This document shows positions 2,109 to 63,144 of a stretch of 64,000 nt of DNA, piece by piece. Under the pieces are notes generated by a model. The model worked only from the letters and a program-made list of their open reading frames with translations. It was not told the DNA's origin and ran no database searches. Source of the DNA: Candidatus Campbellbacteria bacterium GW2011_OD1_34_28 (GTDB taxonomy: Bacteria; Patescibacteriota; Minisyncoccia; Phycocordibacterales; UBA12079); NCBI GenBank assembly GCA_001029775.1, contig CP011215.1, positions 357,722-421,721 on the forward strand, written 5' to 3'. Made by a program: the position numbers and the translations under genes. Within the stretch, counting starts at the first letter, position 1. Every line of letters starts with the position of its first letter.

Positions 2109-2678
2109 ATGGAAACATTAAAAGAAAAAAAGAATAAAATTTTTGATTTGATGAAAGGTGAGTTTGGTTATACAAATGTTATGCAAGCTCCAAAAATTGA
2201 AAAAATTGTTGTTTCTGTTGGTATTGGTTCTGTAAATGATAAAAATAAAATAACCCTTATTGAAGACCGAATCACAAAAATTACTGGACAAAAGCCATCT
2301 GTAAGAAAAGCAAAGAAATCAATCGCTGCTTTTAAATTGAGAGAGGGAACAGAAGTTGGATATCAAGTAACATTGAGAGGTCCAAGAATGATGTCTTTTT
2401 TTGATAAACTAGTAAATGTTGCATTGCCAAGAATGAAAGACTTTAGAGGTTTGACAACAAAAGGTGTAGATTCAATCGGAAATTATACTTTGGGATTGAG
2501 AGAACACACAATTTTCACAGAAGCATCTGATGAAGAATTGAAAAATGTTTTTGGTTTGGCAATTACAATTGTAACAACAGCAAAAACAAAAGAAGAAGCT
2601 ATTACTTTGTTAAAAAATCTAGGATGGCCATTTAAAAAGCAAGAAGATGAGCCAAAAAAGAAAAGAAAGATTAAATAA
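2109..2678 (+). CDS. rplE: 50S ribosomal protein L5
   Basis: 189 aa; conserved L5 core (KIVVSVGIG, GYQVTLRG). Confidence 0.95.
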   Translation: METLKEKKNKIFDLMKGEFGYTNVMQAPKIEKIVVSVGIGSVNDKNKITLIEDRITKITGQKPSVRKAKKSIAAFKLREGTEVGYQVTLRGPRMMSFFDKLVNVALPRMKDFRGLTTKGVDSIGNYTLGLREHTIFTEASDEELKNVFGLAITIVTTAKTKEEAITLLKNLGWPFKKQEDEPKKKRKIK

Positions 2679-2694
2679 TTTAAAATAAAATAGA

Positions 2695-2724
2695 AAAACC
2701 TCGGCTTGCGCCGAGGTTTTTCTA
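2695..2724 (+). terminator. Rho-independent terminator after rplE (cctcggc-ttgc-gccgagg + T-run)
   Basis: Perfect 7-bp GC stem followed by TTTTTCTATTTT. Confidence 0.6.
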
Positions 2725-2780
2725 TTTTAAATTATTATTTTTTTGTAATTCGAAAATTTTTAGGTAAAAATTGAAAATTA

Positions 2781-2810
2781 AAAAAGACAGGGACGAGCCC
2801 TGTCTTTTGT
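2781..2810. terminator. Bidirectional terminator hairpin gacaggg-acga-gccctgtc flanked by A-run and T-run
   Basis: Lies just 3' of the minus-strand ORF 2814-3119 and downstream of rplE. Confidence 0.5.
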
Positions 2811-2813
2811 GTC

Positions 2814-3119
2814 TTAATGACGGCAATTTGCCTCCGCGCTCTTTGTTTTTGGTTTTTTTTGTTGAAGGCGAGTTTTCGTTCCGACGATATTTCCGATAAT
2901 CTCGAATCTCTCATTGGGAAAAAATTTGAAGAGAGGACCTGCTTCAGACCGTGTTTCTCTAAAACACTCACCGCAAATGTGGTCGGCAATGATAAGGGAC
3001 TCTTTTTCTTTTCCGTTACGGGTAATTTTTTTTGTAAGGAATGTTTCTCCTACAAAAAATACCTCTCCAGGCAGTATGTCACTGTATGCCTTGGTTATAA
3101 TCGTCTCGTCCATGTCCAT
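2814..3119 (-). CDS. Hypothetical small protein (101 aa) with CxxC...CxH; non-ribosomal insert within the spc operon
   Basis: Minus-strand ORF with GAGAGGTGG Shine-Dalgarno 6 nt before ATG; its own terminator hairpin; no recognised family. Confidence 0.45.
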   Translation of the reverse strand: MDMDETIITKAYSDILPGEVFFVGETFLTKKITRNGKEKESLIIADHICGECFRETRSEAGPLFKFFPNERFEIIGNIVGTKTRLQQKKPKTKSAEANCRH

Positions 3120-3317
3120 TGTCCACCTCTCGCTCCGAAGGTTAATAAAAATACTTTTATCTGTATCAAGACTATCACAAATTTTTACTTCTTCAAAACT
3201 TGCAGGGACTCGGTTCCCGCAGGTTTAGTTTTTACAAATTTTTGTTAAAAAATACCAAGATTTAAACTTGGGTAGTGATGTATAAATAAAAACTAGATTT
3301 ATGTCGTAAGTAAGATT

Positions 3318-3373
3318 AAACCAAAAAATTACGAAATTTTCACGGTCGTGAAAATTTCGTAATTTTTTGGTTT
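3318..3373. repeat. Palindromic repeat, family P (AAATTACGAAATTTTCAC-GGTCGTG-...), variant copy
   Basis: Near-perfect 50-bp palindrome; related copies at 27927-27972, 28617-28663, 47794-47845. Confidence 0.7.
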
Positions 3374-3514
3374 GGAATTTGAAATTTGAAACATTTGAAT
3401 TTTAAAATCTTAAAATTACAAAAAGTAAAAAGTTCGCACGGGAGTTTTATTGAAGTATGAATTTTTTAATTTTTGACTTTAAAAATAATTGATATTTGAG
3501 AAATAAAAAATCAC

Positions 3515-3548
3515 CCAGCAGAAGCGCTTCTGCTGGGTGATGTGGTTG
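3515..3548 (-). terminator. Minus-strand rho-independent terminator (tcacccagcagaagc-gcttctgctgggtga + T-run on minus strand)
   Basis: 14-bp perfect stem; on minus strand followed by TTTTTTATTT. Confidence 0.6.
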
Positions 3549-4092
3549 GTGTCCTCGGACGCGTTCCGAGAACCCCCAGAGGCCGGCTTTGTGCCGGTTT
3601 ATCCGTGGAGGGGAATTTCACCCCTCCTGATCGATGGTCGCCGATGTGGGGCGTGTCCTTGACCCAAAACGCAGGCAATCTGACTTGCGTCTGTCGTTGG
3701 CACATGCCGTTGGCAACCTTCCTTGCCGTCGGTATCTCCACCGGAATCATCTATCGTGGCCTGCTAGCAAGCCACAACTCCTCCGGTACCGACTTCCAGA
3801 ATCCGTCAAGACGCTTTTTGTCTTCCATGGCGTGGCGGAACCAGTCTAAAATCGCTATGCGTGGCGATTCTCGACGGGATTTTCTCGTGCGACTGGCCCA
3901 GTATTTTAGGGCCGGCCGGTCTTGGAACTTCAGCCGAAGGCTATCGGGCAGGTGGTGGTGGCCCCGGCGACGATCGAAATCCGTTCGGGTCGCGGGGGTG
4001 CAGGGGTCTGGTTGTCGGCTTTCAGCAAGGTTTTGGCGATTGCGGGATGTCCTTTGTTCATGGCGTTTTTTCCTCCTCTGTTGTGGTTGGTG
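3541..4092 (-). other. GC-rich (~58-60%) ~0.55 kb non-coding island flanked by 11-bp direct repeats TGTGGTTGGTG; candidate structured RNA or foreign insertion
   Basis: GC far above the window background. All ORFs here are R/W/P-rich nonsense in every frame. Direct repeats at 3541-3551 and 4082-4092. Minus-strand terminator abuts it. Contains a 44-codon minus-strand ORF with a GGAGGA SD. Confidence 0.4.
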
Positions 4093-4430
4093 AAGAACAA
4101 TATTTTATAAAAACATCTTAGCACTCGTCAAAAATTTGTCAAGTGTTTATTTTGTATACATCTTTTGTTTTTATCGTATTTTTGTAATTCAAAATTAGAT
4201 ATTCAATTAAAATTTTAAATTTGAAATTACCTCCATACCCTAAACGCTATATGCTAAACCCTATTAGAATGTTGACTTTGAATCAGGTCTTTGATAAGAT
4301 ACTGTCTAGTTAATTAAAGCCTTGCGCTTTATTAGCGACGTAGAGTGAAAGAAATGAAAATTCATTTTCATTTCTGAACCGAGGAGCTAATATAAGGGCG
4401 CCTGCCGCTTTTATTTTAATTTTAAAAACA

Positions 4431-4616
4431 ATGGCAAAAAAATCAGTAATCGCTAGAGCAAATAGAACACCAAAATATTCTTCAAGAGTTGTTAGAAGAT
4501 GTTTTAAATGTGGCAGAAAACACGGATACATGAGAGATTTTGATTTGTGTCGTATTTGTTTCAGAGAATTAGCAAATGAGGGCAAATTGCCCGGAGTTAC
4601 TAAATCATCTTGGTAA
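4431..4616 (+). CDS. rpsN: 30S ribosomal protein S14, Zn-binding type Z
   Basis: 61 aa with [10 protein letters not shown]...CRICFRE zinc-ribbon. Confidence 0.93.
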
Positions 4617-4787
4617 AAAAAGAGCCAATAGCTAATAGCCGATAGCTGATAGTAAAAAATATGAAATTATTTTTGTAATATCCTATAAGCTATGAGCTGT
4701 CAGCTATAAGCTCGGTTAAATTCAATATAAATTACAAATATTAATAAATATTCGGGCTGTAGCAATGGCTAGACGACGAATAATAAT

Positions 4788-5177
4788 ATGGATAAAATTT
4801 CAAACTTAATAATAAATATAAAGAACGCAGGAAATGTTGAAAAAGAACATGCTTCTGTTCCTTTTTCTAATTTCAGAATGGAAATAGCTAATCTTCTAAA
4901 AAAAGAAGGTTATTTGAAAGATGTTGTAAAAAAAGGCAAAAAACCAAAATTTACAATTGAAATGGAGATTGCCTTCAAAGAAGACGGAACTCCAAGAGTA
5001 GAAGATGTAAAAAGAGTCTCAAAACCATCAAAGAGAATTTATTTTGGAGCAAAAGATATCAGACCTGTCAAAGGAGGAAGAGGTATTTTGGTGCTTTCTA
5101 CTCCAAAAGGTATTTTGACAGATAGACAAGCAAGAAAAGAAAATGTTGGAGGTGAAGTTTTATTTAAAATTTGGTAA
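4788..5177 (+). CDS. rpsH: 30S ribosomal protein S8
   Basis: 129 aa; ends ...GGEVLFKIW; spc-operon position. Confidence 0.95.
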   Translation: MDKISNLIINIKNAGNVEKEHASVPFSNFRMEIANLLKKEGYLKDVVKKGKKPKFTIEMEIAFKEDGTPRVEDVKRVSKPSKRIYFGAKDIRPVKGGRGILVLSTPKGILTDRQARKENVGGEVLFKIW

Positions 5178-10635: not shown

Positions 10636-11165
10636 TGACGTGGATCGCGTCGGCTTCGCCTCGCGAAGACGATCCGCACGAACAACGTGGACCTGCCTCT
10701 TTTCTGAAAGAAAAGCAACGACACGGCGAGGCAGGTTGTTTCATTGCGTTCGCAATGACAAATTTCTAAAAGAAATTTGTCACCTTCGTCGTCATTGCGA
10801 GCGTAGCGAAGCAATCCATCATGAACTGTTTGTCCGAAATTAATGGACGTGGACCTGCCTGCCGGCGAGGCAGGTCGCTTCGGCTTCGCCTCGCGAAGAC
10901 GACCCGCACGAACAACGTGGACCTGCCTGCCGGCAGGCAGGTCGCTTCGTCGCTTCGTTGCACTCCGCTTCTCGCGAAGACGAAGCCACGTCGTCATTGC
11001 GAGCGTAGCGAAGCAATCCAGGACGACGAACAACTCAAAATAAACGACGTGGATTGCTTCACTTCGTTCGCAAAGACGGAATTTCTCAAAACGAAATTCC
11101 GTCACCTTCGTCGTCATTGCGAGCGTAGCGAAGCAATCCATAACAACTCGGTCTTGCAAAGAAAA
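10636..11165. repeat. Dense cluster of nested palindromic repeats (families A, B, C); non-coding
   Basis: Three forward copies of cgtcgtcattgcgagcgtagcgaagcaatcca (10788, 10990, 11110) plus an inverted copy at 11045. A 48-bp unit is duplicated (10650/10880). cctgcctgccggcaggcagg palindromes. Irregular spacing. Confidence 0.75.
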
Positions 11166-11347: not shown

Positions 11348-14300
11348 ATGAGGGAAGAAATTATTTTAAATAGTAAAAAATTTCTCTCACTGAAAACTGC
11401 TGCGAGAGAAACAAACTATACCAATGACTACATTGGTCAGCTTTGTCGTTCAGGCAAAATCAATTCTCAAATGGTAGGAAAAATTCGTTTTGTGGAAGAA
11501 GATTCCTTGCTTGAATATGTTAAAAAAGCGAATGGTTTTGTAGATATAAAATATGCAGATATTGAAAATATTGCTATCAAAAATAACAAGGATCTCGGCG
11601 ATTTCTCGTCTGTACGAGATACTGATTTTGCTCATTTCCGTCAAGACAAAGCCAACAGTTTGTATGTAAACATTTTTGAAACAGTTTTCTCTAAAAAAGT
11701 AGTTCATGTCTATATCGCAATACTTGTTTTGTGTGGATTGTTTTTTGGTAGTACTTTGGACATACAAGGAGGTTTTGCAAAAATAAAAAATAAATCTGCC
11801 GAAGGATTGGCAAAAATTGTCATGGGAGCAAAAGTGGCGTCTGACAAAATTTCGGAAACGACATTAGCTGTTGCAAATGGCGAGATTGATTACGAAAAAG
11901 TTTATAAAAATTACTCAAATTTTTTAGGAGAGATGTCCGTTGATTTTGCCGAAGGTGAAGTAAAGTATTTCAAAAATGTTACTGGTGTAGGTAGCAAAGT
12001 AACCGAAGCAATTTTTAATCCAAGCGATACTTTTGTAACAGTTAAAACAGAGACAAAAAAAATTCAGGGAAGTGTAGAAGAAATAATTTTTGGTGGTGTG
12101 ATTTATTTTGAAAATCTTTCTACTAATTTAATTCGTGTAAATGAAAAAATTTCTCAAAATGGTTTTGCACAAGAAAAAAATTTGGCATTGTTGAGTCAAG
12201 ACAGTTTTGGATTTACAGAAAAATTTGCAATTACTTGGTATAGAACGATATCAGGTTTTTTTAGTTCCGCTGAAAAAATAGCCGACAGCACGGACGAAGC
12301 TGACAGCGGACAGCTAACAACCAACAGCACAGACGAAGACGACTCGTCCGTCTTTGCGAGCGATAGCGAAGTAATCCAGGAAGAAGACGAAGCCAACAGC
12401 CAACAGCCAACAGCTAACAGCACGAACCAAAACACAACCATCGTTACAAACCCAATCAGAGAAATCATAAAAGAAACCGTTGTAGAAAGAGTTATCCAAA
12501 CATCAGGCGTCACACTGGAAGATCTACAAAAACTAAACAACGAACTCCGAAGTGAAATCTACAAACTCTCATCAAATACAAATGCTCAAATCACCAACAC
12601 CTACCAAGTCATCTCTGCTACTAACAACATCGACAATCTGGGTAGTGTCACAATCACCGACTCAAACATCAGTTCCTCAAATGTCTCAGGAACAGAACTA
12701 AGCTTTACCAACGGAACAATTCAAAACCTAACTGTCACAGGCACAGCTACCTCTACATACGGTGGCCCTATTTCTGCAACCAGTGGAACATACTCTGGCA
12801 ATCTAACCGTAACAGGCAACACCACTCTAAACACTCTTACCGTATCAGGAGACACAATCTTTGACACAGACACTCTTTACATCGATTCAATCAACAACCG
12901 TGTAGGCATCGGATCAACAACACCCACAGATACTCTTTCAATAAACGGAGCAACATACCTTGCACCAATATCAGCTCCATCAATCACAACCGACAGACTT
13001 TACAACATCTCCAATGATTTATACTGGGGTGGTAATCTTTTATCAGGTTCTGCCGTTGGTAATTGGACATCCAACGGAACAGATGTTTGGAGAGCATCAG
13101 GAAATGTGGGTATCGGCACATCATCACCATCTTCAGATTACAGACTATCTGTTCAAGGTAACACTTACATCAAAGGTAATCTTAGGGTAAACGGAAATAC
13201 TACAATTTCAGATAGCGGAGAATTAACAGTCGGAGACAAAGTTATCTCAGAAGGAGAAATCGGAGTTGGAACATCTTCTCCCTATGCCAAACTATCTATC
13301 CAAGGAACAACTGTTTCCACAACCACTTTTGGTATCTATGGTTTTGCAAATCAAACACAGTCTCTCTTTGATGTATATGACAATCCTACGAATAATTTAA
13401 ATGTGTTTAGAATCACGAGTGATGGCAGCGTCGGTATCGCTACATCATCACCTTTTAGAAAGTTGAGTGTAGAAGGTAGTGCGTGGATTAGTGGAGACTT
13501 AACAGCCAACAGTTTCACTGCTACTTCTTCAATGAGCGCTCCTTACTTTACTGCAACAGACTCAAGTGCAACAAGTACTTTTGCAGGAGGCTTGGCTGTT
13601 GGAACAAACAAATTTGTTGTTGATTATTCTACGGGAAATGTGGGGGTGGGGACGGTGAGTCCGGATCAAAAATTGGATGTAAATGGCTGGGGTCGTTTTG
13701 AGGGGGCTGGGTCTACAAATCGTAGTGATTCTGGTGCAATAGAGTTTTATAACAATAATGCTTCATCTCTTAATGTGCAAGCTCAAATAAAGGGTCTACG
13801 AGGTATAGGTTCATATAATTCTGGTCAATTGGGATTTTTCACTAGACTAGCGGGTACACTTTATGAGCGAATGACACTAGATGAAAACGGCAACGTCGGC
13901 ATTGGGACGATGGTGCCGGGATATAAATTGGATATTGCTGGTTCTGTGGCAGCCCCGACGACTTTACTTGTCCAAGCAGGAGGCATAACTGAAAATACTG
14001 GGAATGCTTTTCGTGTTTATAGAAACAGAGCTTCCTCTTCTACAAACGCTCCGTTAGTAGATTTTATAAATGATGCAGCAACGGATGACCAGCCACTTTT
14101 TAGACTTCAACAAGATGCACCAGCTGATATTCTCCAAGTTTTTGATGGAGCAACTCAAGTGTTTACAATCCTAGACGGCGGCAACGTCGGGATCGGCACC
14201 ACTTCACCTCTCGCAAAACTATCTGTCAAAGGAGCAGGAACAACCACAGGCATAAACTTCCAAACAACCAATTCGGCTGACACTCCGTTGGTGACTGTTT

Positions 14301-17300
14301 TGGATAGTGGGAATGTGGGAATTGGGACGGTGAGTCCGGGAGCGAAGCTTGAAGTTTTTGGCGACATGATAATAGGAGACGTGACGAATGGAAGCGTTTT
14401 TAGATATAATCCAACCACGAACACGATTGTGAACGGTGCACATGAAAATAGTATAGGTGTTGGTTCCTCAAATTCTATAATAGCTGCAGGAGGAGCTACT
14501 GCAAGTTCTAATATCAATAGTATTGGAACTGATTCTTACGTGACTACGATTAGTGGTGGATACGATAACACAATTGGAAATGACTCTCCTGCCGCAACTA
14601 TCAGCGGGGGTGCTCACCATCGAATAGATACAGGAGGAACACATGGAACAATAGGTGGTGGATCAACCAACACCATACAGGCCGGCGGAGATTATGGTTT
14701 CATTGGAGCAGGATTGAGTAATATTGTTGGAGGCACATATGCGTTCATAGGAGCAGGAAGCAACAATGTGGCTACAGGATTTAGATCTGCCGTCATGGGA
14801 GGTTATTCTAATGATGCAACGGGTCAATATGCCACCATTCCTGGCGGTTGGGGTAATGCCGCATCGGGTGATTATTCTTTTGCTTTCGGTTATAGGGCGA
14901 ATGCTGCCGCGACTGGCGTGGTTGTATTCAAAGATTCAGTAAACGCGCAATATACGGTTAATACAACTAATATGTTTGGAGCGAATTTCACAGGTGGTTA
15001 TCAGTTGCTCGGTGGTAACGTCGGCATCGGCACCACCTCACCTTTCGCAAAACTCTCTGTCAAAGGAGCAGGAACAACCACAGGTGTAAACTTCCAAACA
15101 ACCAATTCGGCTGATACTCCGTTGGTGACTGTTTTGGATAGTGGGAATGTCGGTATTGGGACGACGAATCCTGGAGCAATGTTGGAGTTATCTTCTATAA
15201 GTATTAATGGTTCAGTTTTACGTTTATCTAATAATAATAATACAATTGCCCAAGGTGAAGAATTAGGAAGTATAGAATTTTTTAGTGGAGATAATAGTGG
15301 TTCTTACCCAGATACAGTAAAAGCAAAGATTTTATCTCTCACTGAAGATTCTGTAAGTCGTGATGGAAATCTAGTTTTCAAAACTTCACTTTTGTCTGAT
15401 GCCTCACCAGTAGAAAGAATGAGAATAAATAGTAATGGCAACGTCGGCATTGGTTCCACCTCACCTTTTGCAAAACTATCCGTCAAAGGAGCGGGAACAA
15501 CCACAGGGATAAACTTCCAAACAACCAATTCGGCTAACACTCCTTTGGTGACTGTTTTGGATAGTGGAAATGTTGGTATTGGGACGACAGCGCCTAGTGA
15601 AAAATTAGAAGTTGCTGGAAATATTTTGTTATGGAATAGTGTCAATGATAATACATTAAGATTTAAAGATAATAATGTCGCTCACGGATTAACTGACCTT
15701 GTTTCTACATATATACATACTGAATTAAGAAATGAAGATGTGTCAGCAGGAGGAACAAGACTATTGGGGGTTACTGATCAGGATCTTGCCTCAGGAATTA
15801 ATTTGTATGGAGTGTTGGGTGTGACTGACCCAACTGATACTGTTCCTGCAATTAAAATTAATGGGGCAAAGAAAAACACTACTAATGTGCAATCTCTTGG
15901 AAACTTAGAAACAGTTTTTCAGGTTCAAAATAATACTTCCCCGTTATTGACTTTATTGGGAAATGGCAACCTCGGTATCGGCACCACCTCACCTTTTGCA
16001 AAACTTTCCGTCGTCGGAGATGTTGTTGCCGACTATTTCAACGCAACTTCAACCACAGCAACATCAACATTCGCTGGCGGTTTAACAGTGGGAACAAACA
16101 AGTTGGTGGTGGATAGGAGTACGGGCAACGTCGGAATCGGGACGGCGAGTCCGAGTCAAATGTTATCAGTTGGCGCAAGCAGTCAGTTTACGGTTACTTC
16201 AGCAGGTGTCGTAACCGGACAAAATTTTGCAGTAACCAGTGGGGCTTATGTAATAGATGTCAGTAACGGTTTAAGGTTGTATTCAAATGGTGGTCTGGGA
16301 ATAAAATTTACGACTTGGGATGGCAGCTATGTTGATAGGATGGTCGTTTCAACAACAGGTAACATCGGCATCGGCACCACTTCACCTTTTGCAAAACTTT
16401 CAGTAACAGGAACCGGAACAGGCACTGGCTCGGCTTTTCAAGTTGCCGATTCTGCCAACTCACCAAAATTTACTGTTTTGGATAATGGGAATGTGGGGGT
16501 GGGGACGGTGAGTCCGACTCAAAAATTAGACGTTAATGGAAATATTCATTTAGGATCCAGCGTTGATGATTTAACAACGAGAAATATATATTTGGCCTCC
16601 AATCGTTATTTAAGCCTTACTTCTACAGGGCTAGATGTTTCGAACTGGTATGGTTCCGATGGCAGCGCTCATAAAGTTGGGTTTAATGGGAAAGAAGTAT
16701 TGGTGGTTGGATCTAACGGAATTGTTGCTATAGGCAATAATATTAATGGCGGTCCTGGTGATTACATGCCTCTTGTTTTACAGGGAAATGAATCGGGCGA
16801 TGTATTAATTAAAAGCGATCAATATCAATGGGGCGTTGATACGCGTCCAATAAGAATAATTACAGATGACCCCTATGCCAATACCGGACAGACTTTAAAT
16901 GCTGGAAATATAGTTCTTCAAACAGGAATAGGGACAAATGGAGGAGCAACAGGAATAATAAAATTTGAAATTGGTGCATCTGGTTCTGAAAAAATGCGAA
17001 TTGACACTTCTGGCAACATCGGCATCGGCACCACCACCCCATGGAGAACTCTTTCCGTAAACGGAACAGCTGCTTTCACCGGTCTAACCAACGACGGAAC
17101 AGGTTATTACGCTTGTATATCAACCAACGGAGAACTAGCCACATCAACAACCGCTTGTGGAGCATCGTCAGAAAGATTTAAAACAAACATAAATGATCTA
17201 ACATACGGTCTAGACACAGTCCTTCAACTACGCCCTGTATCTTTCAACTGGAAATCAGACTTTATCAATTCTTCTTCAACTCAAATCGGATTTATTGCAG

Positions 17301-18079
17301 AAGAAGTTGATTTGTTAATCCCAGAAGTCATCGGACACGATGACAAAGGTAACATCATGAACCTTGATTATCCAAAGTTGACGGCGGTCTTGGTAGGTGC
17401 AATGAAAGAACTTAATACAAAAATCTCGGCTATTGCTTCTTCGACCCCAATCGTCTCAACAGGAATTGTTGATTCCGTTCTATCTCATCTAGAAAGTTTG
17501 GGTGCAAAATTTGTTGACGGTATTGCTTACTTCAAAGATGTTGTCGTAAAAACTTTGACAGCAGAAAAGGTTATCACAAATGGAATTGAGATGGTGGACG
17601 AAGTAACAGGAGAAATATATTGTGTGAGAATTCAAAACGGAGCGATGGTTAATATTGCGGGAACTTGTGATACAGCTAATAGCCAACAGCCAACAGCAGA
17701 ACCTTCAAACACCACTCCTCCCACAATAACAATCACAGGCAACAACCCAGCCGTAGTAGAAATAAACAGCAACTATATTGATCTAGGTGCTACAGCAGTA
17801 GACTATCAAGGAAACTCTCTAATAGTAGATACAATAGACGCAGATACAGTAGACACAACAACAGCAGGAGAATACACAGTTACTTACACAACATTTGATG
17901 GAACACTGACTTCAACAAGTACAAGAACAGTACTTGTTGAAGATTCAACAGCTGTAACAACAGAACCAGCAACGACAACAGAGCCAACAGCAACGACAAC
18001 AAATCCTGTGGTAGAACCGACAGCTACGACGACAGATCCAGTGGTAGAACCGACAGCGACAACGACAGAGCAGATTTAA
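11348..18079 (+). CDS. Giant (2243 aa) membrane-anchored fibre-like surface protein. Order: N-terminal HTH-like segment, TM helix, many GNVGIGTTSPxAKLxV and Hep_Hag-like beta-roll repeats, peptidase-S74 intramolecular chaperone domain, C-terminal Ig-like (DUF5011-type) domain and Thr/Pro-rich tail.
   Basis: Single uninterrupted ORF. The S74 motif is SSERFKTNINDL...PVSFNWKS...GFIAEEV...PEVI...DYPKLTAVLVGAMKELN. The Ig-like motif is ITITGNNPAVVEINSNYIDLGATAVDYQGN...GEYTVTYT. Confidence 0.85.
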   Translation: MREEIILNSKKFLSLKTAARETNYTNDYIGQLCRSGKINSQMVGKIRFVEEDSLLEYVKKANGFVDIKYADIENIAIKNNKDLGDFSSVRDTDFAHFRQDKANSLYVNIFETVFSKKVVHVYIAILVLCGLFFGSTLDIQGGFAKIKNKSAEGLAKIVMGAKVASDKISETTLAVANGEIDYEKVYKNYSNFLGEMSVDFAEGEVKYFKNVTGVGSKVTEAIFNPSDTFVTVKTETKKIQGSVEEIIFGGVIYFENLSTNLIRVNEKISQNGFAQEKNLALLSQDSFGFTEKFAITWYRTISGFFSSAEKIADSTDEADSGQLTTNSTDEDDSSVFASDSEVIQEEDEANSQQPTANSTNQNTTIVTNPIREIIKETVVERVIQTSGVTLEDLQKLNNELRSEIYKLSSNTNAQITNTYQVISATNNIDNLGSVTITDSNISSSNVSGTELSFTNGTIQNLTVTGTATSTYGGPISATSGTYSGNLTVTGNTTLNTLTVSGDTIFDTDTLYIDSINNRVGIGSTTPTDTLSINGATYLAPISAPSITTDRLYNISNDLYWGGNLLSGSAVGNWTSNGTDVWRASGNVGIGTSSPSSDYRLSVQGNTYIKGNLRVNGNTTISDSGELTVGDKVISEGEIGVGTSSPYAKLSIQGTTVSTTTFGIYGFANQTQSLFDVYDNPTNNLNVFRITSDGSVGIATSSPFRKLSVEGSAWISGDLTANSFTATSSMSAPYFTATDSSATSTFAGGLAVGTNKFVVDYSTGNVGVGTVSPDQKLDVNGWGRFEGAGSTNRSDSGAIEFYNNNASSLNVQAQIKGLRGIGSYNSGQLGFFTRLAGTLYERMTLDENGNVGIGTMVPGYKLDIAGSVAAPTTLLVQAGGITENTGNAFRVYRNRASSSTNAPLVDFINDAATDDQPLFRLQQDAPADILQVFDGATQVFTILDGGNVGIGTTSPLAKLSVKGAGTTTGINFQTTNSADTPLVTVLDSGNVGIGTVSPGAKLEVFGDMIIGDVTNGSVFRYNPTTNTIVNGAHENSIGVGSSNSIIAAGGATASSNINSIGTDSYVTTISGGYDNTIGNDSPAATISGGAHHRIDTGGTHGTIGGGSTNTIQAGGDYGFIGAGLSNIVGGTYAFIGAGSNNVATGFRSAVMGGYSNDATGQYATIPGGWGNAASGDYSFAFGYRANAAATGVVVFKDSVNAQYTVNTTNMFGANFTGGYQLLGGNVGIGTTSPFAKLSVKGAGTTTGVNFQTTNSADTPLVTVLDSGNVGIGTTNPGAMLELSSISINGSVLRLSNNNNTIAQGEELGSIEFFSGDNSGSYPDTVKAKILSLTEDSVSRDGNLVFKTSLLSDASPVERMRINSNGNVGIGSTSPFAKLSVKGAGTTTGINFQTTNSANTPLVTVLDSGNVGIGTTAPSEKLEVAGNILLWNSVNDNTLRFKDNNVAHGLTDLVSTYIHTELRNEDVSAGGTRLLGVTDQDLASGINLYGVLGVTDPTDTVPAIKINGAKKNTTNVQSLGNLETVFQVQNNTSPLLTLLGNGNLGIGTTSPFAKLSVVGDVVADYFNATSTTATSTFAGGLTVGTNKLVVDRSTGNVGIGTASPSQMLSVGASSQFTVTSAGVVTGQNFAVTSGAYVIDVSNGLRLYSNGGLGIKFTTWDGSYVDRMVVSTTGNIGIGTTSPFAKLSVTGTGTGTGSAFQVADSANSPKFTVLDNGNVGVGTVSPTQKLDVNGNIHLGSSVDDLTTRNIYLASNRYLSLTSTGLDVSNWYGSDGSAHKVGFNGKEVLVVGSNGIVAIGNNINGGPGDYMPLVLQGNESGDVLIKSDQYQWGVDTRPIRIITDDPYANTGQTLNAGNIVLQTGIGTNGGATGIIKFEIGASGSEKMRIDTSGNIGIGTTTPWRTLSVNGTAAFTGLTNDGTGYYACISTNGELATSTTACGASSERFKTNINDLTYGLDTVLQLRPVSFNWKSDFINSSSTQIGFIAEEVDLLIPEVIGHDDKGNIMNLDYPKLTAVLVGAMKELNTKISAIASSTPIVSTGIVDSVLSHLESLGAKFVDGIAYFKDVVVKTLTAEKVITNGIEMVDEVTGEIYCVRIQNGAMVNIAGTCDTANSQQPTAEPSNTTPPTITITGNNPAVVEINSNYIDLGATAVDYQGNSLIVDTIDADTVDTTTAGEYTVTYTTFDGTLTSTSTRTVLVEDSTAVTTEPATTTEPTATTTNPVVEPTATTTDPVVEPTATTTEQI

Positions 18080-18084
18080 TATAA

Positions 18085-18395
18085 TCCGAATGCCTCGAAT
18101 TAGAATCCGAATGCCCCGAATTTCGAATTAATCCGAATTATTAGGAATAAAATTCGTCTTCGCGAGCGAAGCGAAGCGATCCAGAACGACGAACGAACGC
18201 CGTGGATTGCTTCGGACTTCGTCCTCGCAAAGACGGACGGAAGACGAAGTTGGGCAAAGCCCAACTTCGTCAACGAATTTTCTTTCAGAAAATTCGGATG
18301 ATTCGGCAATTCGGAGCACCTGCCTGCCGGCAGGCAGGTTAGGATATAATTTGTAGTATTCGGATTATATTAAAAAATTAAAATTTAACAAAAAA
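18085..18395. repeat. Nested palindromic repeat cluster (AATCCGAAT/ATTCGGATT arms, inverted family-A pair, family-C palindrome)
   Basis: The inverted partners are visible in the sequence. The ORFs called here run through the repeats. Confidence 0.7.
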
Positions 18396-21549: not shown

Positions 21550-22251
21550 ATGAGAAGAAAAGTACTATTTGTAAACGGAGAATTTTATCATATCTTTAAT
21601 AGGGGAACAGATAAAAGAAACATATTTTCGGATAAAAATGATGCATTTAGATTTCTTGAAAGTATCGAAGTTTTTAATAATATTGAAGCCGGCAATAATA
21701 TCTTTCGCACTCATAGATTGAAAAATGGACTGGGTCCGACCCAGTCTAATCCAGAGAAGATAGAGAAAAAAGAACCAATAGTGAATATTATTTGTTATTG
21801 TTTAAATTCAAATCATTATCATTTTATATTGGAACAATTAGTTGATGGTGGAATAAGTGAATTTATGAAGAGGCTAGGAGGTGGCTATACTTGTTATTAT
21901 AATGAAAGACATAAAAGATCGGGGGTATTATTTCAGGGTAAGTTCAAAGCTGCTCATATAAAATCAAATGAACAATTATTGCGCCTTAGTTCTTATGTGA
22001 ATTTGAACAATAAAGTCCATCAAAAATTTGATAAATATAAAAAAAATTTCCTTGATTTGATTGCAAATAGATCAAGTTGGGAAGAATATATTAAAAAAGA
22101 TAATAAATACAGTATTTGCAAAAAAGATATCATTTTAGGACAATTTAAAAACAGAGAAGATTATAGAAAAAATGCCGAAGATGTGATAAAAGAAATTAAA
22201 GAAATGAGGTATGGGGAAGAAGTAAACTCGACTGGGTCCGACCCAGTCTAA
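21550..22251 (+). CDS. IS200/IS605-family HUH transposase, REP-associated tyrosine transposase (RAYT)-like
   Basis: EFYHIFNRG..IF, HUH motif NHYHFIL, GYTCYYNERHKRSGVLFQGKFKA..LSSYVNLNN; flanked by identical hairpins. Confidence 0.7.
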   Translation: MRRKVLFVNGEFYHIFNRGTDKRNIFSDKNDAFRFLESIEVFNNIEAGNNIFRTHRLKNGLGPTQSNPEKIEKKEPIVNIICYCLNSNHYHFILEQLVDGGISEFMKRLGGGYTCYYNERHKRSGVLFQGKFKAAHIKSNEQLLRLSSYVNLNNKVHQKFDKYKKNFLDLIANRSSWEEYIKKDNKYSICKKDIILGQFKNREDYRKNAEDVIKEIKEMRYGEEVNSTGSDPV

Positions 22252-25424: not shown

Positions 25425-25525
25425 GCACATAGCGTATAGCGTGTAGCGTGTAGGGAACGAATTTTGCCTTTGGCAAAATTCGTTCAAAACCTATACCCCA
25501 TACCCTAAACGCTATACGCTAAAAA
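25425..25525. repeat. Family-D palindrome: TAG-rich heptamer arms (agcgtatagcgtgtaggg / ccctaaacgctatacgct) around a GC hairpin
   Basis: Arms are mutual inverted complements. Central hairpin is gaacgaattttgcc-tttg-gcaaaattcgttc. Related copies at 26700-26745, 41640-41730, 50700-50785. Confidence 0.7.
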
Positions 25526-27926: not shown

Positions 27927-27972
27927 TAAAAATTACGAAATTTACGCGACCGCGTAAATTTCGTAATTTTTA
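27927..27972. repeat. 46-bp perfect palindrome AAAATTACGAAATTTACGCGACCGCGTAAATTTCGTAATTTT (family P)
   Basis: Identical copy at 28617-28663; in divergent promoter region between the PfkB gene and ORF 28000. Confidence 0.85.
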
Positions 27973-27999
27973 TTTTTAAAGTTATAATATGACATATAT

Positions 28000-28551
28000 A
28001 TGAAACATATAAATGTTCAAAAAGTTATTTTAAATACTGTCGCTGTAGCAGGGTTGATTGGTGTTGCCGTTTTGGCTCCAAATGCTTTACAGGTTGTAAA
28101 GCAATTTACTCCAAAAAAGAAAAAATGGACAAGAGAAACATATTATATGAATGATTCGATTGAAAATTTGTTAGAGAAGGGATTGATAGAAAAGGTTAGA
28201 AAGGGCAATACTGAATTTATTAAACTTACGAAAAAGGGTGGTGAGCTGAGCGCAAGATATGAATTGGGTGATTTGGAAATAGAAAAACCTAAGAAATGGG
28301 ATAAAAAATGGAGGGTAATAATTTTTGATATTTCAGAAAACAAAAAAAGCCTGAGAGATTTGTTAAGATTAAATTTAAACAGGTTAGGTTTTGTTAAATT
28401 GCAAAATAGTGTTTGGGTTTTTCCTTATGAATGTGAAGAATTAATTTTCTTATTAAAGACAAAGTTTTTTATAGACAGCGATGTTTTGTATATGGAGGTT
28501 AATAGAATCGAAAACGAAAAATGGTTAAAAGAAGTTTTTGGCTTGAATTAA
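28000..28551 (+). CDS. Hypothetical membrane-anchored winged-helix protein with PaaX-C-like domain
   Basis: N-terminal hydrophobic helix, wHTH-like segment, C-terminal WRVIIFDISE...GFVKLQNSVWVFP resembling PaaX C-domain. Confidence 0.4.
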   Translation: MKHINVQKVILNTVAVAGLIGVAVLAPNALQVVKQFTPKKKKWTRETYYMNDSIENLLEKGLIEKVRKGNTEFIKLTKKGGELSARYELGDLEIEKPKKWDKKWRVIIFDISENKKSLRDLLRLNLNRLGFVKLQNSVWVFPYECEELIFLLKTKFFIDSDVLYMEVNRIENEKWLKEVFGLN

Positions 28552-28616
28552 CCCCGCCTAATATAAGAACAGATTATTGTTTTTGTGTTTGAGAGATTAA
28601 TAACTGAAATTCAAAA

Positions 28617-28663
28617 CAAAAAATTACGAAATTTACGCGACCGCGTAAATTTCGTAATTTTTT
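28617..28663. repeat. Second identical copy of the family-P palindrome
   Basis: Exact match to 27927-27972. Confidence 0.85.
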
Positions 28664-41585: not shown

Positions 41586-41736
41586 TAATTTAAATTGATT
41601 ATACAAGCAAAAAGTCGTATCATTTGAGTACGGCTTTTTGTTTGTATAATCAAAGCGTATAGCGTATAGGGTGTAGGGTAATAGAAAATTTTTTAAAAAT
41701 TTTACTAAACGCTACACCCTAACCCCTATAAAAGAA

Positions 41737-60664: not shown

Positions 60665-60728
60665 TTTGAAAAATGAGGACATAGCCGAAATATTGCAATA
60701 TTTCGGCTATTCTGTTAATATATGCCTC

Positions 60729-61259
60729 ATGTTAAAAATCAGATTACAAAGAGTTGGAAGAAAGCACGATCCTTCATTCAGGATTGTTTTAACTGATTCT
60801 AAAAATGGTCCAAAGAGCGGTAAATTCTTGGAAATTCTTGGAAATTATGACGCTAAAAAAGACACCAAGGTTGTTAATGGAGAAAGAGTAAAAGAATTGA
60901 TTTCTCAAGGAGCACAGATCTCAGATACTGTTCACAATATTTTGATAAGTGAAAAGATAATAGAGGGAAAGAAGAAAAATGTTTTGCCAAGCAAATCTCC
61001 TGTGGTAGATGAAGCAAAGATAAAAGCAGAAGAAGAAGCAAAAAAGGCAAAGGAAGAAGCTGAGGCAAAGGCTAGAGCCGAGGCACAAGAGGCTCAGAAA
61101 AAAGCAGAGGCAGAAGAAAAGGCAAAAGCTGAAGCAGAAGCACAGGCTGAAAAGGAAGCAAAGAAAGAAGAAACTCCAGCAGAAGAAGTCCCGGTTGTAG
61201 AAGAAGCACCAGTTGTTGCGGAAACTACTGAAACTGTTGAAACTGCCGAAACTGAATAA
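60729..61259 (+). CDS. rpsP: 30S ribosomal protein S16 with Ala/Glu/Lys-rich C-terminal extension
   Basis: MLKIRLQRVGRKHDPSFRIV; tail of (AEAK)-type repeats. Confidence 0.88.
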   Translation: MLKIRLQRVGRKHDPSFRIVLTDSKNGPKSGKFLEILGNYDAKKDTKVVNGERVKELISQGAQISDTVHNILISEKIIEGKKKNVLPSKSPVVDEAKIKAEEEAKKAKEEAEAKARAEAQEAQKKAEAEEKAKAEAEAQAEKEAKKEETPAEEVPVVEEAPVVAETTETVETAETE

Positions 61260-61276
61260 TAAAAAATTTAAAAAAA

Positions 61277-61310
61277 CTTGCAGGGACTCGGTCCCTGCAA
61301 GTTTTTTGTT
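61277..61310 (+). terminator. Rho-independent terminator cttgcaggga-ctcgg-tccctgcaag + T6 (degenerate copy at 3199-3230)
   Basis: 10-bp perfect stem, T-run. Confidence 0.7.
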
Positions 61311-62283: not shown

Positions 62284-62433
62284 TTGTATTTAAAAATAAA
62301 ATAAAAAACCCCGCACGAATGCGGGGTTAGACAGACGGGGAGAGGTTCTTGTTCTCCAACCAGCTTCGTTGACGAAGGGGTTGAAATTACCCTTTTAGGG
62401 GACTCGTGGTCCCACCCTGCTGTCTTTTCGAGG

Positions 62434-62655
62434 CTACTCGTTGATCGGAGGAAACGCCTCCGCAACAAGCTTGTTCGCCATATCGGTGGCGAATTCCCGG
62501 GCCTCATCGGGGCTGATTCTCAGCTCAGCTGCCGTCGTCCCGATTTGTCGGGCCACCACGTTGGGCATCAAACTGCCGATGCCCTTTGACCGCGCCTGGT
62601 TTAAAACAAGCAGGTACGCGATCTGGTTTCTTCTTTCTTCTGTCATCTTTGCCAT
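62434..62655 (-). CDS. GC-rich (~58%) small hypothetical protein (74 aa), possible DNA-binding regulator
   Basis: GGAGG SD 7 nt before ATG. Inverted repeat TTCACGAAGGATTCGTGGAA upstream at ~62680. Minus-strand terminator ccccgcattcgtgcgggg + U-run at 62293-62316. Confidence 0.5.
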   Translation of the reverse strand: MAKMTEERRNQIAYLLVLNQARSKGIGSLMPNVVARQIGTTAAELRISPDEAREFATDMANKLVAEAFPPINE

Positions 62656-63144
62656 AGGAAACCTCCTTTTCGGCAATTTTTCCACGAATCCTTCGTGAAT
62701 AGGGTAGCAGAGAATCCTCAAACTACAATACAATTATACATCATATATTTGTATTTGTAAATGGTGTGAGTTTCATAAAATTCACAAACTTGGTTTTTGC
62801 TTAATACTTATACCTTAATCCTTAAGCCTTGGTTTCTATACCCTAACCGCTACACCCTATACCCTGAATGAGTTTTCCACAATTGACAAATCTTTTTGTT
62901 GACAAACTGTTATTTTTTAGATAAACTCTTACCCATCATATATCGGATCTAAGATTGAGTTTCGGCAGAACCCCTGATATTTATTAATAGCGCGCACATT
63001 AATAAAACCGTCCGAGGCAGAAGGATGGTCAAATTTATTTTGTTTAAGGGTGATATTAAATAAGAAAAAGTTAGAGAAACCTCTTTGAGGTGACTTTTTT
63101 GTTTTAGTATTGTCAATTTTATTAGCGAAAAAATAGAAAACATC

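Follow-up and report, generated by a model that had tools for sequence, protein, structure and literature searches.

A variable rplE-rpsN junction in the ribosomal-protein cluster of Paceibacteria and the apparent strain-specific replacement of a candidate small RNA gene by a GC-rich segment

Introduction

The ribosomal-protein cluster has the most conserved gene order in bacteria and serves as the backbone of phylogenomics and binning in the candidate phyla radiation (CPR). In the canonical spc operon, which is part of this cluster, rplE (ribosomal protein L5) adjoins rpsN (S14). Here, we describe the rplE-rpsN junction in a 64,000-nucleotide stretch of Candidatus Campbellbacteria bacterium GW2011_OD1_34_28 (GCA_001029775.1, contig CP011215.1, positions 357,722 to 421,721; referred to as the window, with position 1 as its first letter), together with its counterparts in related Paceibacteria. 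The whole lineage appears to break the cluster at this one fixed point and to use it as a landing site for accessory DNA. In the window, the junction holds a young protein gene, hairpins and palindromes, and a strain-specific 978-bp segment with a GC-rich island.

Phage morons are autonomous promoter-gene-terminator units located between conserved phage genes, a concept reportedly going back to Juhala and Hendrix. The GC-rich island resembles a moron in having its own promoter-like site and intrinsic terminator (both as consensus matches only), in its deviant composition, in being set within a conserved collinear cluster, between two of its genes, and in being missing from near-identical genomes. 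It differs from a moron in that its surroundings are a ribosomal-protein cluster of a cellular genome instead of a phage or prophage, its open reading frame (ORF) is 43 codons long or broken and has no homolog, and its sole link to phages is a shared 21-nt hairpin. In the intergenic region switching of Escherichia coli, intergenic segments are replaced between conserved flanks. The present locus likewise shows near-identical flanks around a wholly different segment with sharp breakpoints among strains of one species. However, an RNA or small-gene transcription unit is swapped here instead of the regulatory region of a flanking gene, and the rpsN promoter is left untouched.

In Gammaproteobacteria and Bacilli, small sets of non-ribosomal genes occur between pairs of operons, such as tusDCB between rpoBC and str and bfd-bfr between str and S10 (PMC8046335). 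In the same study, one insertion was located within an operon (nrdHEF in the rpoBC operon, between rplL and rsmC), and rpsN itself had been exchanged through recombination (PMC8046335). Compared with insertions at the boundaries of the S10, spc and alpha operons, the boundary described here separates rplE from rpsN within the canonical spc operon, is lineage-wide in Paceibacteria and comes with a dedicated predicted rpsN promoter. The locus thus differs from the known cases in its break point, in the lineage-wide use of that point together with an rpsN promoter, and in the kind of unit swapped. A break at rplE|rpsN in CPR bacteria did not turn up in a literature search. No principle is overturned by such a break, but it bears on operon models, synteny-based annotation and checks for chimeric contigs. 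The swap of a small RNA (sRNA) gene for a cassette of foreign composition at the strain level is a clean natural experiment on gene flow in genomes that are supposedly static and minimal, and the sRNA, the orphan protein and the phage-type hairpin are undescribed elements.

Spacing and cargo of the rplE-rpsN junction

The gap between rplE and rpsN in the window is 1752 bp long (2679-4430), and both flanking genes were identified by Pfam (Table 1). The initial annotation of the window had claimed that about 1.7 kb of non-ribosomal DNA separates the two genes, and this agrees with the length found. All of the features that it had listed in the gap are present as well, namely a 101-aa ORF with a Shine-Dalgarno sequence and terminator, a palindrome, a copy of the hairpin behind the S16 gene, the GC island, and a TTGACT-17-TAAGAT promoter followed by a hairpin leader. 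The organisation of spc is therefore non-canonical here, with a long spacer, a terminator after rplE and a promoter-like site ahead of rpsN. Terminator-like sites were enriched in the region 2500-4800, with 8 observed compared to 2.4 ± 1.4 in shuffled sequences.

We fetched 38 related GTDB loci using L5 as the query (L5 identity 52-96%) and located L5, S14 and S8 in each of them. The distance between L5 and S14 spanned about 70 to 3261 bp among the 31 Paceibacteria relatives with both genes in the fetched locus. It was about 70-130 bp in 10 of them, 195-320 bp in 5, 400-1000 bp in 7 and 1.5-3.3 kb in 9, and 4 additional relatives had no rpsN within 2.9-4 kb. The inserted genes differed from lineage to lineage without any relationship, and many were ORFs of no family. 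Recognisable cargo included a PaaX-like protein with a Cas2-like domain, an IS200-like Y1 transposase between identical hairpins, a histidine kinase with an Ig-domain protein, DsbA-like or thioredoxin proteins, and a metallophosphoesterase with a peptidoglycan-binding protein. The synteny comparison thus upholds the earlier proposal of an insertion hotspot through the spread of gap sizes, the unrelated cargo and the replacement of a cassette within one species (see below), and supports the hotspot as a property of the whole lineage and not of this genome alone. The hotspot is real but fairly ordinary, while its cargo (the orphan protein, the sRNA and the GC-rich cassette) is functionally unexplained.

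Table 1. Positions of the features at the rplE-rpsN junction of the window
Feature	Position	Strand	Remarks
rplE (ribosomal protein L5)	2109-2678	+	Pfam Ribosomal_L5 (E 2e-19) and Ribosomal_L5_C (E 7e-30); ends the proposed upstream unit
Bidirectional terminator-like hairpin, 20 pairs	2686-2729	both	Terminator scan and self-complementarity; directly past the rplE stop codon
Terminator-like hairpin of the 101-aa ORF	2782-2808	-	11 pairs (5 G-C), then a T-run
Orphan 101-aa protein gene	2814-3119	-	99 aa in annotation elsewhere; predicted beta-rich
Hairpin akin to the S16-gene terminator	3195-3230		Between the 101-aa ORF and the RNA cassette; kept in L002, degenerate in L010
Strain-specific 978-bp segment	3294-4271		Includes the GC island; replaces a 301-bp segment of near-identical strains
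Family-P palindrome	3318-3373		56 nt, 96% self-complementary; AT-rich, A-run + 20-bp stem + T-run
GC island	3510-4095		55-60% GC, compared to ~25-35% around it
Predicted terminator of the GC-rich transcript	3510-3541	-	14-bp stem + T-run; akin to the terminator of the sRNA allele; covariance-model hit
GC-rich body of the predicted ~600-nt transcript	3542-4095	-	57% GC; 3' half hairpin-rich, small ORF in the 5' half
Hairpin GGAGGGGUGAAAUUCCCCUCC	3607-3627	-	Identical to an intergenic hairpin of 17 viral contigs
Putative 43-codon ORF (MNKGHPAIAKTLL...)	3930-4061	-	AGAGGAGGA at 4071-4079, 9 nt before the ATG at 4061
Promoter-like TTGACA-16-TAAGAT with TG	4115-4142	-	10/12 consensus matches; ahead of the GC-rich unit
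Repeat motif ACCCTAAACGCTATA	4237-4251	+	Promoter side of the cassette
Predicted rpsN promoter TTGACT-17-TAAGAT with TG	4272-4300	+	Consensus scan; equivalents in relatives
Predicted rpsN leader	4301-4430	+	Small hairpin AAAGC..GCUUU near the 5' end
rpsN (S14, short zinc-binding form)	4431-4616	+	Pfam Ribosomal_S14 (E 5e-24); opens the proposed downstream unit

A promoter-like site ahead of rpsN

We scored promoters as a TTGAC-type -35 with at least 9/12 consensus matches no more than 130 nt upstream of the gene. Such a site was found ahead of rpsN in 17 of 32 loci, compared to none ahead of rplN (0/38), rplX (0/38), rplE (0/39) and rpsH (0/32) and two ahead of rplF (2/31). In 4 more loci, including the window, the predicted rpsN promoter was located farther upstream. 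The near-insertless relatives, with a spacing of about 70-130 bp, carry TTGACA-17-TAGTAT or a close variant directly ahead of rpsN, and in several of these short gaps the -35 starts a few bases past the rplE stop codon. Because relatives with this spacing already have the promoter, it is best regarded as ancestral. Insertions accumulate just upstream of the rpsN -35, and the strain-conserved sequence of the window picks up again exactly at the first base of this element (4272). The sequence comparisons indicate that the rpsN promoter most likely predates the insertions and helps to explain why they are tolerated.

Apparent replacement of a candidate sRNA gene within one species

Same-species contigs from other samples and metagenome-assembled genomes (L002-L008, L052-L054 and L057) carry a 301-bp allele in place of the 978-bp segment. 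The window shared 99.7% identity with them up to 3293 and 98.3% from 4272. On the minus strand, the 301-bp allele shows a promoter-like TTGACA-16-TAGTAT followed by a predicted GC-rich RNA of ~155 nt, which ends in the terminator CCCCCAGCAAAGCGCUUUGCUGGGGG and a U-run. The sister species L010 has the same sRNA in the same place with an internal 21-nt deletion. In these two sequences, the only ones available for comparison, the 35 predicted pairs showed 1 compensatory and 2 one-sided changes, and the predicted stems were preserved. Because the sRNA is present in the sister species, we infer that the sRNA allele is ancestral and the allele of the window derived. The sRNA allele and 17 relatives matched no Rfam family, and with a covariance model built from the two sRNA copies, neither the window nor the 38 related loci yielded another copy.

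The derived allele keeps the ancestral layout on the minus strand, with a promoter-like site, a GC-rich body, a terminator with AT-rich spacer, a palindrome and the lead-in to the 101-aa ORF. Alignment of the island terminator and the AT-rich spacer downstream of it with the terminator region of the L010 sRNA scored 56; as a control, shuffles compared with the L002 segment scored 20 ± 2.6. The GC-rich body itself is unrelated in sequence to the sRNA, and the similarity is confined to the terminator region. The shared terminator was also considered as the mark of a wider cassette family, which was rejected after a pattern scan of metagenomes returned the known allele and two unrelated GC-rich contigs.

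Composition, folding and coding potential of the GC-rich island

The GC content of the island is 57%, as opposed to about 31-35% in its surroundings. The folding z-score was -3.4 for the minus strand and -1.1 for the plus strand. Along the minus strand, it was -4.6 for 3545-3800, where three perfect hairpins precede the terminator in the 3' half of the unit, and about 0 for 3850-4100, so that the 5' 250 nt folded no better than shuffles. In the whole window, Rfam 15 at gathering thresholds returned two tRNAs outside the gap only; in the gap, hairpin-level chance matches alone appeared with E values up to 10.

On the minus strand, a second frame (4104-3514) of 197 codons is interrupted once, by a TAG, and the plus-strand frame that is codon-aligned with it is open for 183 codons. 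GC peaked at the shared third codon positions, and the signal shifted from the frame of the ATG to the long frame near 3940. A pattern of one stopless frame together with another of at most one stop was found in 1.2% of dinucleotide shuffles (P = 0.012).

Searches for relatives of the island were negative. Its DNA gave no match by blastn against PLSDB plasmids and INPHARED phages, and tblastn gave one match to plasmids (E 0.3) and none to phages. A conceptual frameshift-corrected protein had no match at E ≤ 1 among 5.8 billion proteins, the 183-aa plus-strand ORF matched itself only, and the island frames, including the 43-codon ORF, belonged to no family in Pfam, PHROGs or PADLOC. A back-translated pattern scan of JGI metagenomes found no match to the island, and a match of the same kind in IMG/VR (L048, 27 aa, 48% identity) was treated as chance. 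A likeness of the long frame to a 78-aa protein of locus L020 was rejected (BLASTP E = 31).

Analogous GC-rich units with a promoter, a ribosome-binding site (RBS), an intact small ORF, hairpins and a terminator, all as predicted, were observed in three places. Two of them lie in rplE-rpsN gaps of relatives, with an ORF of 74-78 aa, depending on the start codon, in L020 and of 45 aa in L025. The third is a second GC island on the minus strand of the window (62300-62680) with 54-58% GC, an RBS and an intact 73-aa ORF (62437-62655), followed by a 3' region of ~110 nt and a strong predicted terminator at about 62308-62330; it showed no family matches. A clear GGAGG-type RBS marked each of the small accessory genes, namely the 101-aa ORF, those of the two GC islands and the small ORFs of L020 and L025, but was missing from rplE, rpsN and rpsH.

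Two further kinds of system were tried for the island and its neighbours. A type I toxin-antitoxin system was rejected, since the 43-aa peptide is not hydrophobic and no convergent promoter pair overlaps the 43-codon ORF. Integron cassettes were also rejected, as the modules have promoter-like sites and terminators of their own and ribosomal neighbours; no search was aimed at an integrase or attC sites.

A phage-type hairpin in the island

One of the perfect hairpins, the 21-nt GGAGGGGTGAAATTCCCCTCC, occurred in exactly one copy in each of 17 unrelated IMG/VR contigs (L059-L075). The number of exact matches expected by chance was estimated at <0.1, and a loop-reversed control had 0 matches. 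The viral copies were always intergenic and on the strand of the flanking genes, with flanks unrelated to each other. In at least 4 of 8 tested contigs, the hairpin was located just 3' of a major head gene, and these head genes came from four PHROG families. Exact viral matches were absent for two further hairpins of the island, for the sRNA and for the family-P palindrome, and a literature search found no mention of the hairpin sequence. Because the hairpin is an intergenic element in phages, an overlapping 79-aa "ORF" is implausible. This single short element is a hint that the island, at least in part, came from a mobile element or phage.

Origin of the segment and of the junction

With moderate confidence, we favour an account in which the rplE|rpsN split provides an insertion-tolerant slot and the GC-rich unit is a cassette of mobile-element or phage descent. 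The ribosomal-protein cluster of Paceibacteria would consist of two transcription units divided between rplE and rpsN, with rpsN and the downstream genes driven by their own sigma-70-type promoter directly upstream. The slot would tolerate insertions because DNA between the rplE stop codon and the -35 interrupts neither unit, and different lineages would fill it with unrelated, self-contained modules. In the window, these modules would be the young lineage-specific 101-aa protein gene with its own terminator, the hairpins and palindromes acting as terminators or insulators between modules, and the 978-bp segment in place of the ancestral ~155-nt sRNA gene. The segment appears to be built like a moron from a promoter, an RBS, a 43-codon ORF, a hairpin-rich 3' region with the phage-type hairpin and a terminator, and its composition (57% GC) is foreign to a genome of ~33% GC. 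It is probably a small-gene cassette recently acquired from a mobile element or phage, which may either still be expressed as a short peptide mRNA or already be decaying.

Several observations weigh against this account. The RBS is the one feature that points to the putative 43-codon ORF, and the coding signal of the island was marginal compared to dinucleotide shuffles (P = 0.06 for the 183-codon open frame and P = 0.17 for periodicity). Since the island had no homolog anywhere searched, the case for a foreign or phage origin comes down to a single 21-nt hairpin and the composition. The island copies that were recovered were all identical and therefore offered no variation for testing selection. 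Promoter-like sites in 2500-4800 were not enriched (6 observed compared to 6.0 ± 2.4 in shuffles), so the predicted promoters are made credible by conservation in relatives and not by the scan. Finally, about a third of the relatives had no recognisable promoter before rpsN, and its apparent ancestry could thus instead reflect repeated gain.

The GC-rich unit could also be a new large (~600 nt) structured noncoding RNA, a functional alternative allele of the ~155-nt sRNA in which the ORFs are incidental. It occupies the exact slot of the sRNA in the same orientation, with the same promoter position and a related terminator, and high GC in an AT-rich genome between a promoter and a terminator is the classic signature of a structured RNA. 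The preference of the minus strand for folding, strongest in the 3' half with its several perfect hairpins, and the absence of an intact long ORF on the transcribed strand point the same way. However, no Rfam family was found even at E values up to 10, covariation cannot be shown with no homolog of the island, the 5' 250 nt fold like shuffles, a good RBS and ATG stand at the 5' end, and the similarity to the sRNA is limited to the terminator. We regard this explanation as unlikely, though worth weighing.

Decay of a longer gene is another minor candidate. The island would then derive from a gene of about 130-190 codons from a GC-rich donor, disrupted by one frameshift and one TAG with its expression signals left in place. 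The 4104-3514 frame with one stop in 197 codons and its open plus-strand partner are consistent with this reading, as are the rarity of such a frame pair in dinucleotide shuffles and the third-position GC, which moves with the change from the ATG frame to the long one. On the other hand, the conceptual protein had no homolog among the 5.8 billion proteins, Pfam, PHROGs, plasmids and phages, the overall periodicity was not significant, and perfect hairpins take up the 3' third of the frame, of which one is intergenic in phages. Programmed frameshifting was rejected since the overlap region has no slippery heptamer.

A combined version seems rather doubtful, in which the slot is one for interchangeable RNA genes and a ~600-nt structured RNA, possibly derived from a phage, took the place, promoter position and terminator of the ~155-nt sRNA in one subpopulation. 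Noncoding RNA genes would then be exchanged as alleles within the ribosomal-protein cluster of a CPR bacterium.

For the junction itself, the initial annotation had suggested that the distal half of the operon acquired an independent promoter after the insertion. In that case, rplE and rpsN would have been contiguous and co-transcribed until the insertion, and the distal genes would then have gained a promoter to restore expression. The canonical adjacency of the two genes fits this order of events, as do the strong terminator after rplE and the promoter before rpsN in the window. However, the same promoter type occurs in relatives with about 70-130 bp spacing and no insert, and its sequence is conserved from the window to the sister species, in contrast to the exchanged DNA ahead of the -35. 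The comparison therefore does not bear out the suggested order, which we consider very improbable.

The window arrangement was found with identical sequence in separate assemblies (GCA_000990765.1, contig LBQI01000001.1; GCA_003489565.1; JGI 3300025011), with the same junctions on ~320 kb contigs from separate assemblies and samples, and is thus no assembly artefact. An assembly chimera or contaminant, which the foreign composition, the missing match in the JGI metagenome scan and the presence of other sequence at this place in several assemblies might suggest, is barely credible given these identical junctions, the AT-rich, native-looking promoter and terminator sequence in which the island is set, and the fact that its terminator and the spacer behind it are homologous to the native sRNA locus.

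The 101-aa ORF

The 101-aa ORF is preceded by the RBS GAGAGGTGG upstream of its ATG. We looked for homologs among 5.8 billion proteins by word-indexed search and among 1.84 billion representatives by a full HMMER scan. A single relative was found, with 69% identity at the same position in the sister species (L010/JAQTWD01); the ORF occurred in the same species and this one sister species and in none of the other 37 relatives. The two proteins gave a ratio of nonsynonymous to synonymous substitution rates (dN/dS) of 0.17 with a dS of about 1.06, which indicates a real gene under purifying selection. Its dN of 0.18, compared to 0.007-0.058 for the ribosomal neighbours, shows that it evolves far faster than they do.

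The protein of the window contains CGEC and C-R-H, and the initial annotation had guessed at a zinc ribbon. The profile check lent this no support, as there was no Pfam match (the best was DUF2913, E 0.18), and the CxxC is not conserved, with CGKY replacing CGEC in the sole homolog and only C49 and C99 invariant. No match was found in PHROGs or PADLOC either. A structure model was all-beta and had no significant structural neighbour. The initial annotation had also raised the case of the same gene being conserved in relatives between rplE and rpsN. This holds, trivially, for the same position in one sister species, but the gene occurred nowhere else among 1.8 billion representatives. A conserved ribosome-associated factor of the cluster was therefore rejected, as the gene is not present across the wider lineage.

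Palindromes, repeats and possibly movable modules

The boundaries between modules in the gap are bidirectional terminator-like hairpins, namely the one past rplE, the S16-like hairpin and the family-P palindrome. In the S16-like hairpin, 3195-3214 is identical in 20/20 positions to 61273-61292, which belongs to the hairpin behind an S16-like ORF (60666-61259). The family-P palindrome is probably a bidirectional terminator or insulator. It has relatives in the window at 27928-27971 and 28612-28663, and compensatory differences in the stems (TCACGGTCGTGA compared to ACGCGACCGCGT) point to selection on the hairpin. In the L010 gap, three copies delimit the modules.

The two other copies in the window stand on both sides of a gene for a 183-aa PaaX-like protein with a Cas2-like domain (27928-28663), and a 71%-identical PaaX-like gene with the same palindrome flanks lies in the rplE-rpsN gap of L010 (4762-5700). 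Modules bounded by palindromes thus turn up at different loci, and the palindrome-flanked PaaX-like unit may be a movable module. Like repetitive extragenic palindromic (REP) sequences and bacterial interspersed mosaic elements (BIMEs), the family-P palindromes are repeated, intergenic and hairpin-forming, show compensatory differences and lie between convergent or independent units; they differ in being long and AT-rich with 20-bp stems. The gene for an IS200-like Y1 transposase in the window (21556-22221) has the hairpin GACTGGGTCCGACCCAGTC on both sides, which differs from family P, so there is no evidence of a RayT-type enzyme moving these palindromes. A 63%-identical homolog of the transposase in L012 (4702-5364), directly after rplE, has another hairpin pair, and no enzyme was found that could be tied to the family-P palindromes.

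With one mismatch allowed, the motif ACCCTAAACGCTATA was found in 5 copies in the window (4237, 25502, 41658 on the minus strand, 41716 and 62840), compared to 0 expected. The second GC island (62.3-62.7 kb) also has a copy of this ACCCTAA-CGCTA motif on its promoter side. At 25430-25520 and 41650-41730, ACCCTAAACGCTATA is part of inverted repeats of short TAGCGT-like units.

The rpsN leader and other features

The rpsN sequence was 100% identical in the window, in L002 of the same species and in the sister species L010. The hairpin at 4350-4375 in the rpsN leader sits in a species-specific insert of ~80 nt that is missing from the L010 leader, and a further hairpin with a U-run lies at 4392-4414. 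In most relatives (L010-L047), a short G+C hairpin opens the leader, 30-70 nt upstream of rpsN and no more than a few nt from the predicted start. This hairpin has A's on both sides and a U-run after it, as in GAAAGCCC-loop-GGGCUUUU; its stem sequence varies by lineage with the pairing preserved, and the counterparts in the window are at 4318-4334 and 4392-4414. It could be a 5' stabiliser or an attenuator.

The rpsN-rpsH spacer (4619-4784) is polymorphic as well, with 166 bp in the window compared to 57 bp in other strains. TAGCT-type units arranged as an inverted repeat make up the additional DNA, of which a 40-nt part shares 92.5% identity with the rplN-rplX spacer (about 1761-1800). A GC-rich block (about 56%) at 10640-11140 consists of the repeated palindromic units GGACCTGCCTGCCGGCAGGCAGGTCGCTTCG and GTCGTCATTGCGAGCGTAGCGAAGCAATCC (three times), and a related multi-hairpin element is located at 5440-5620 of L010. 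The GC content is also raised to 41-47% over ~6 kb at about 12300-18300, compared to ~33% in the rest of the window.

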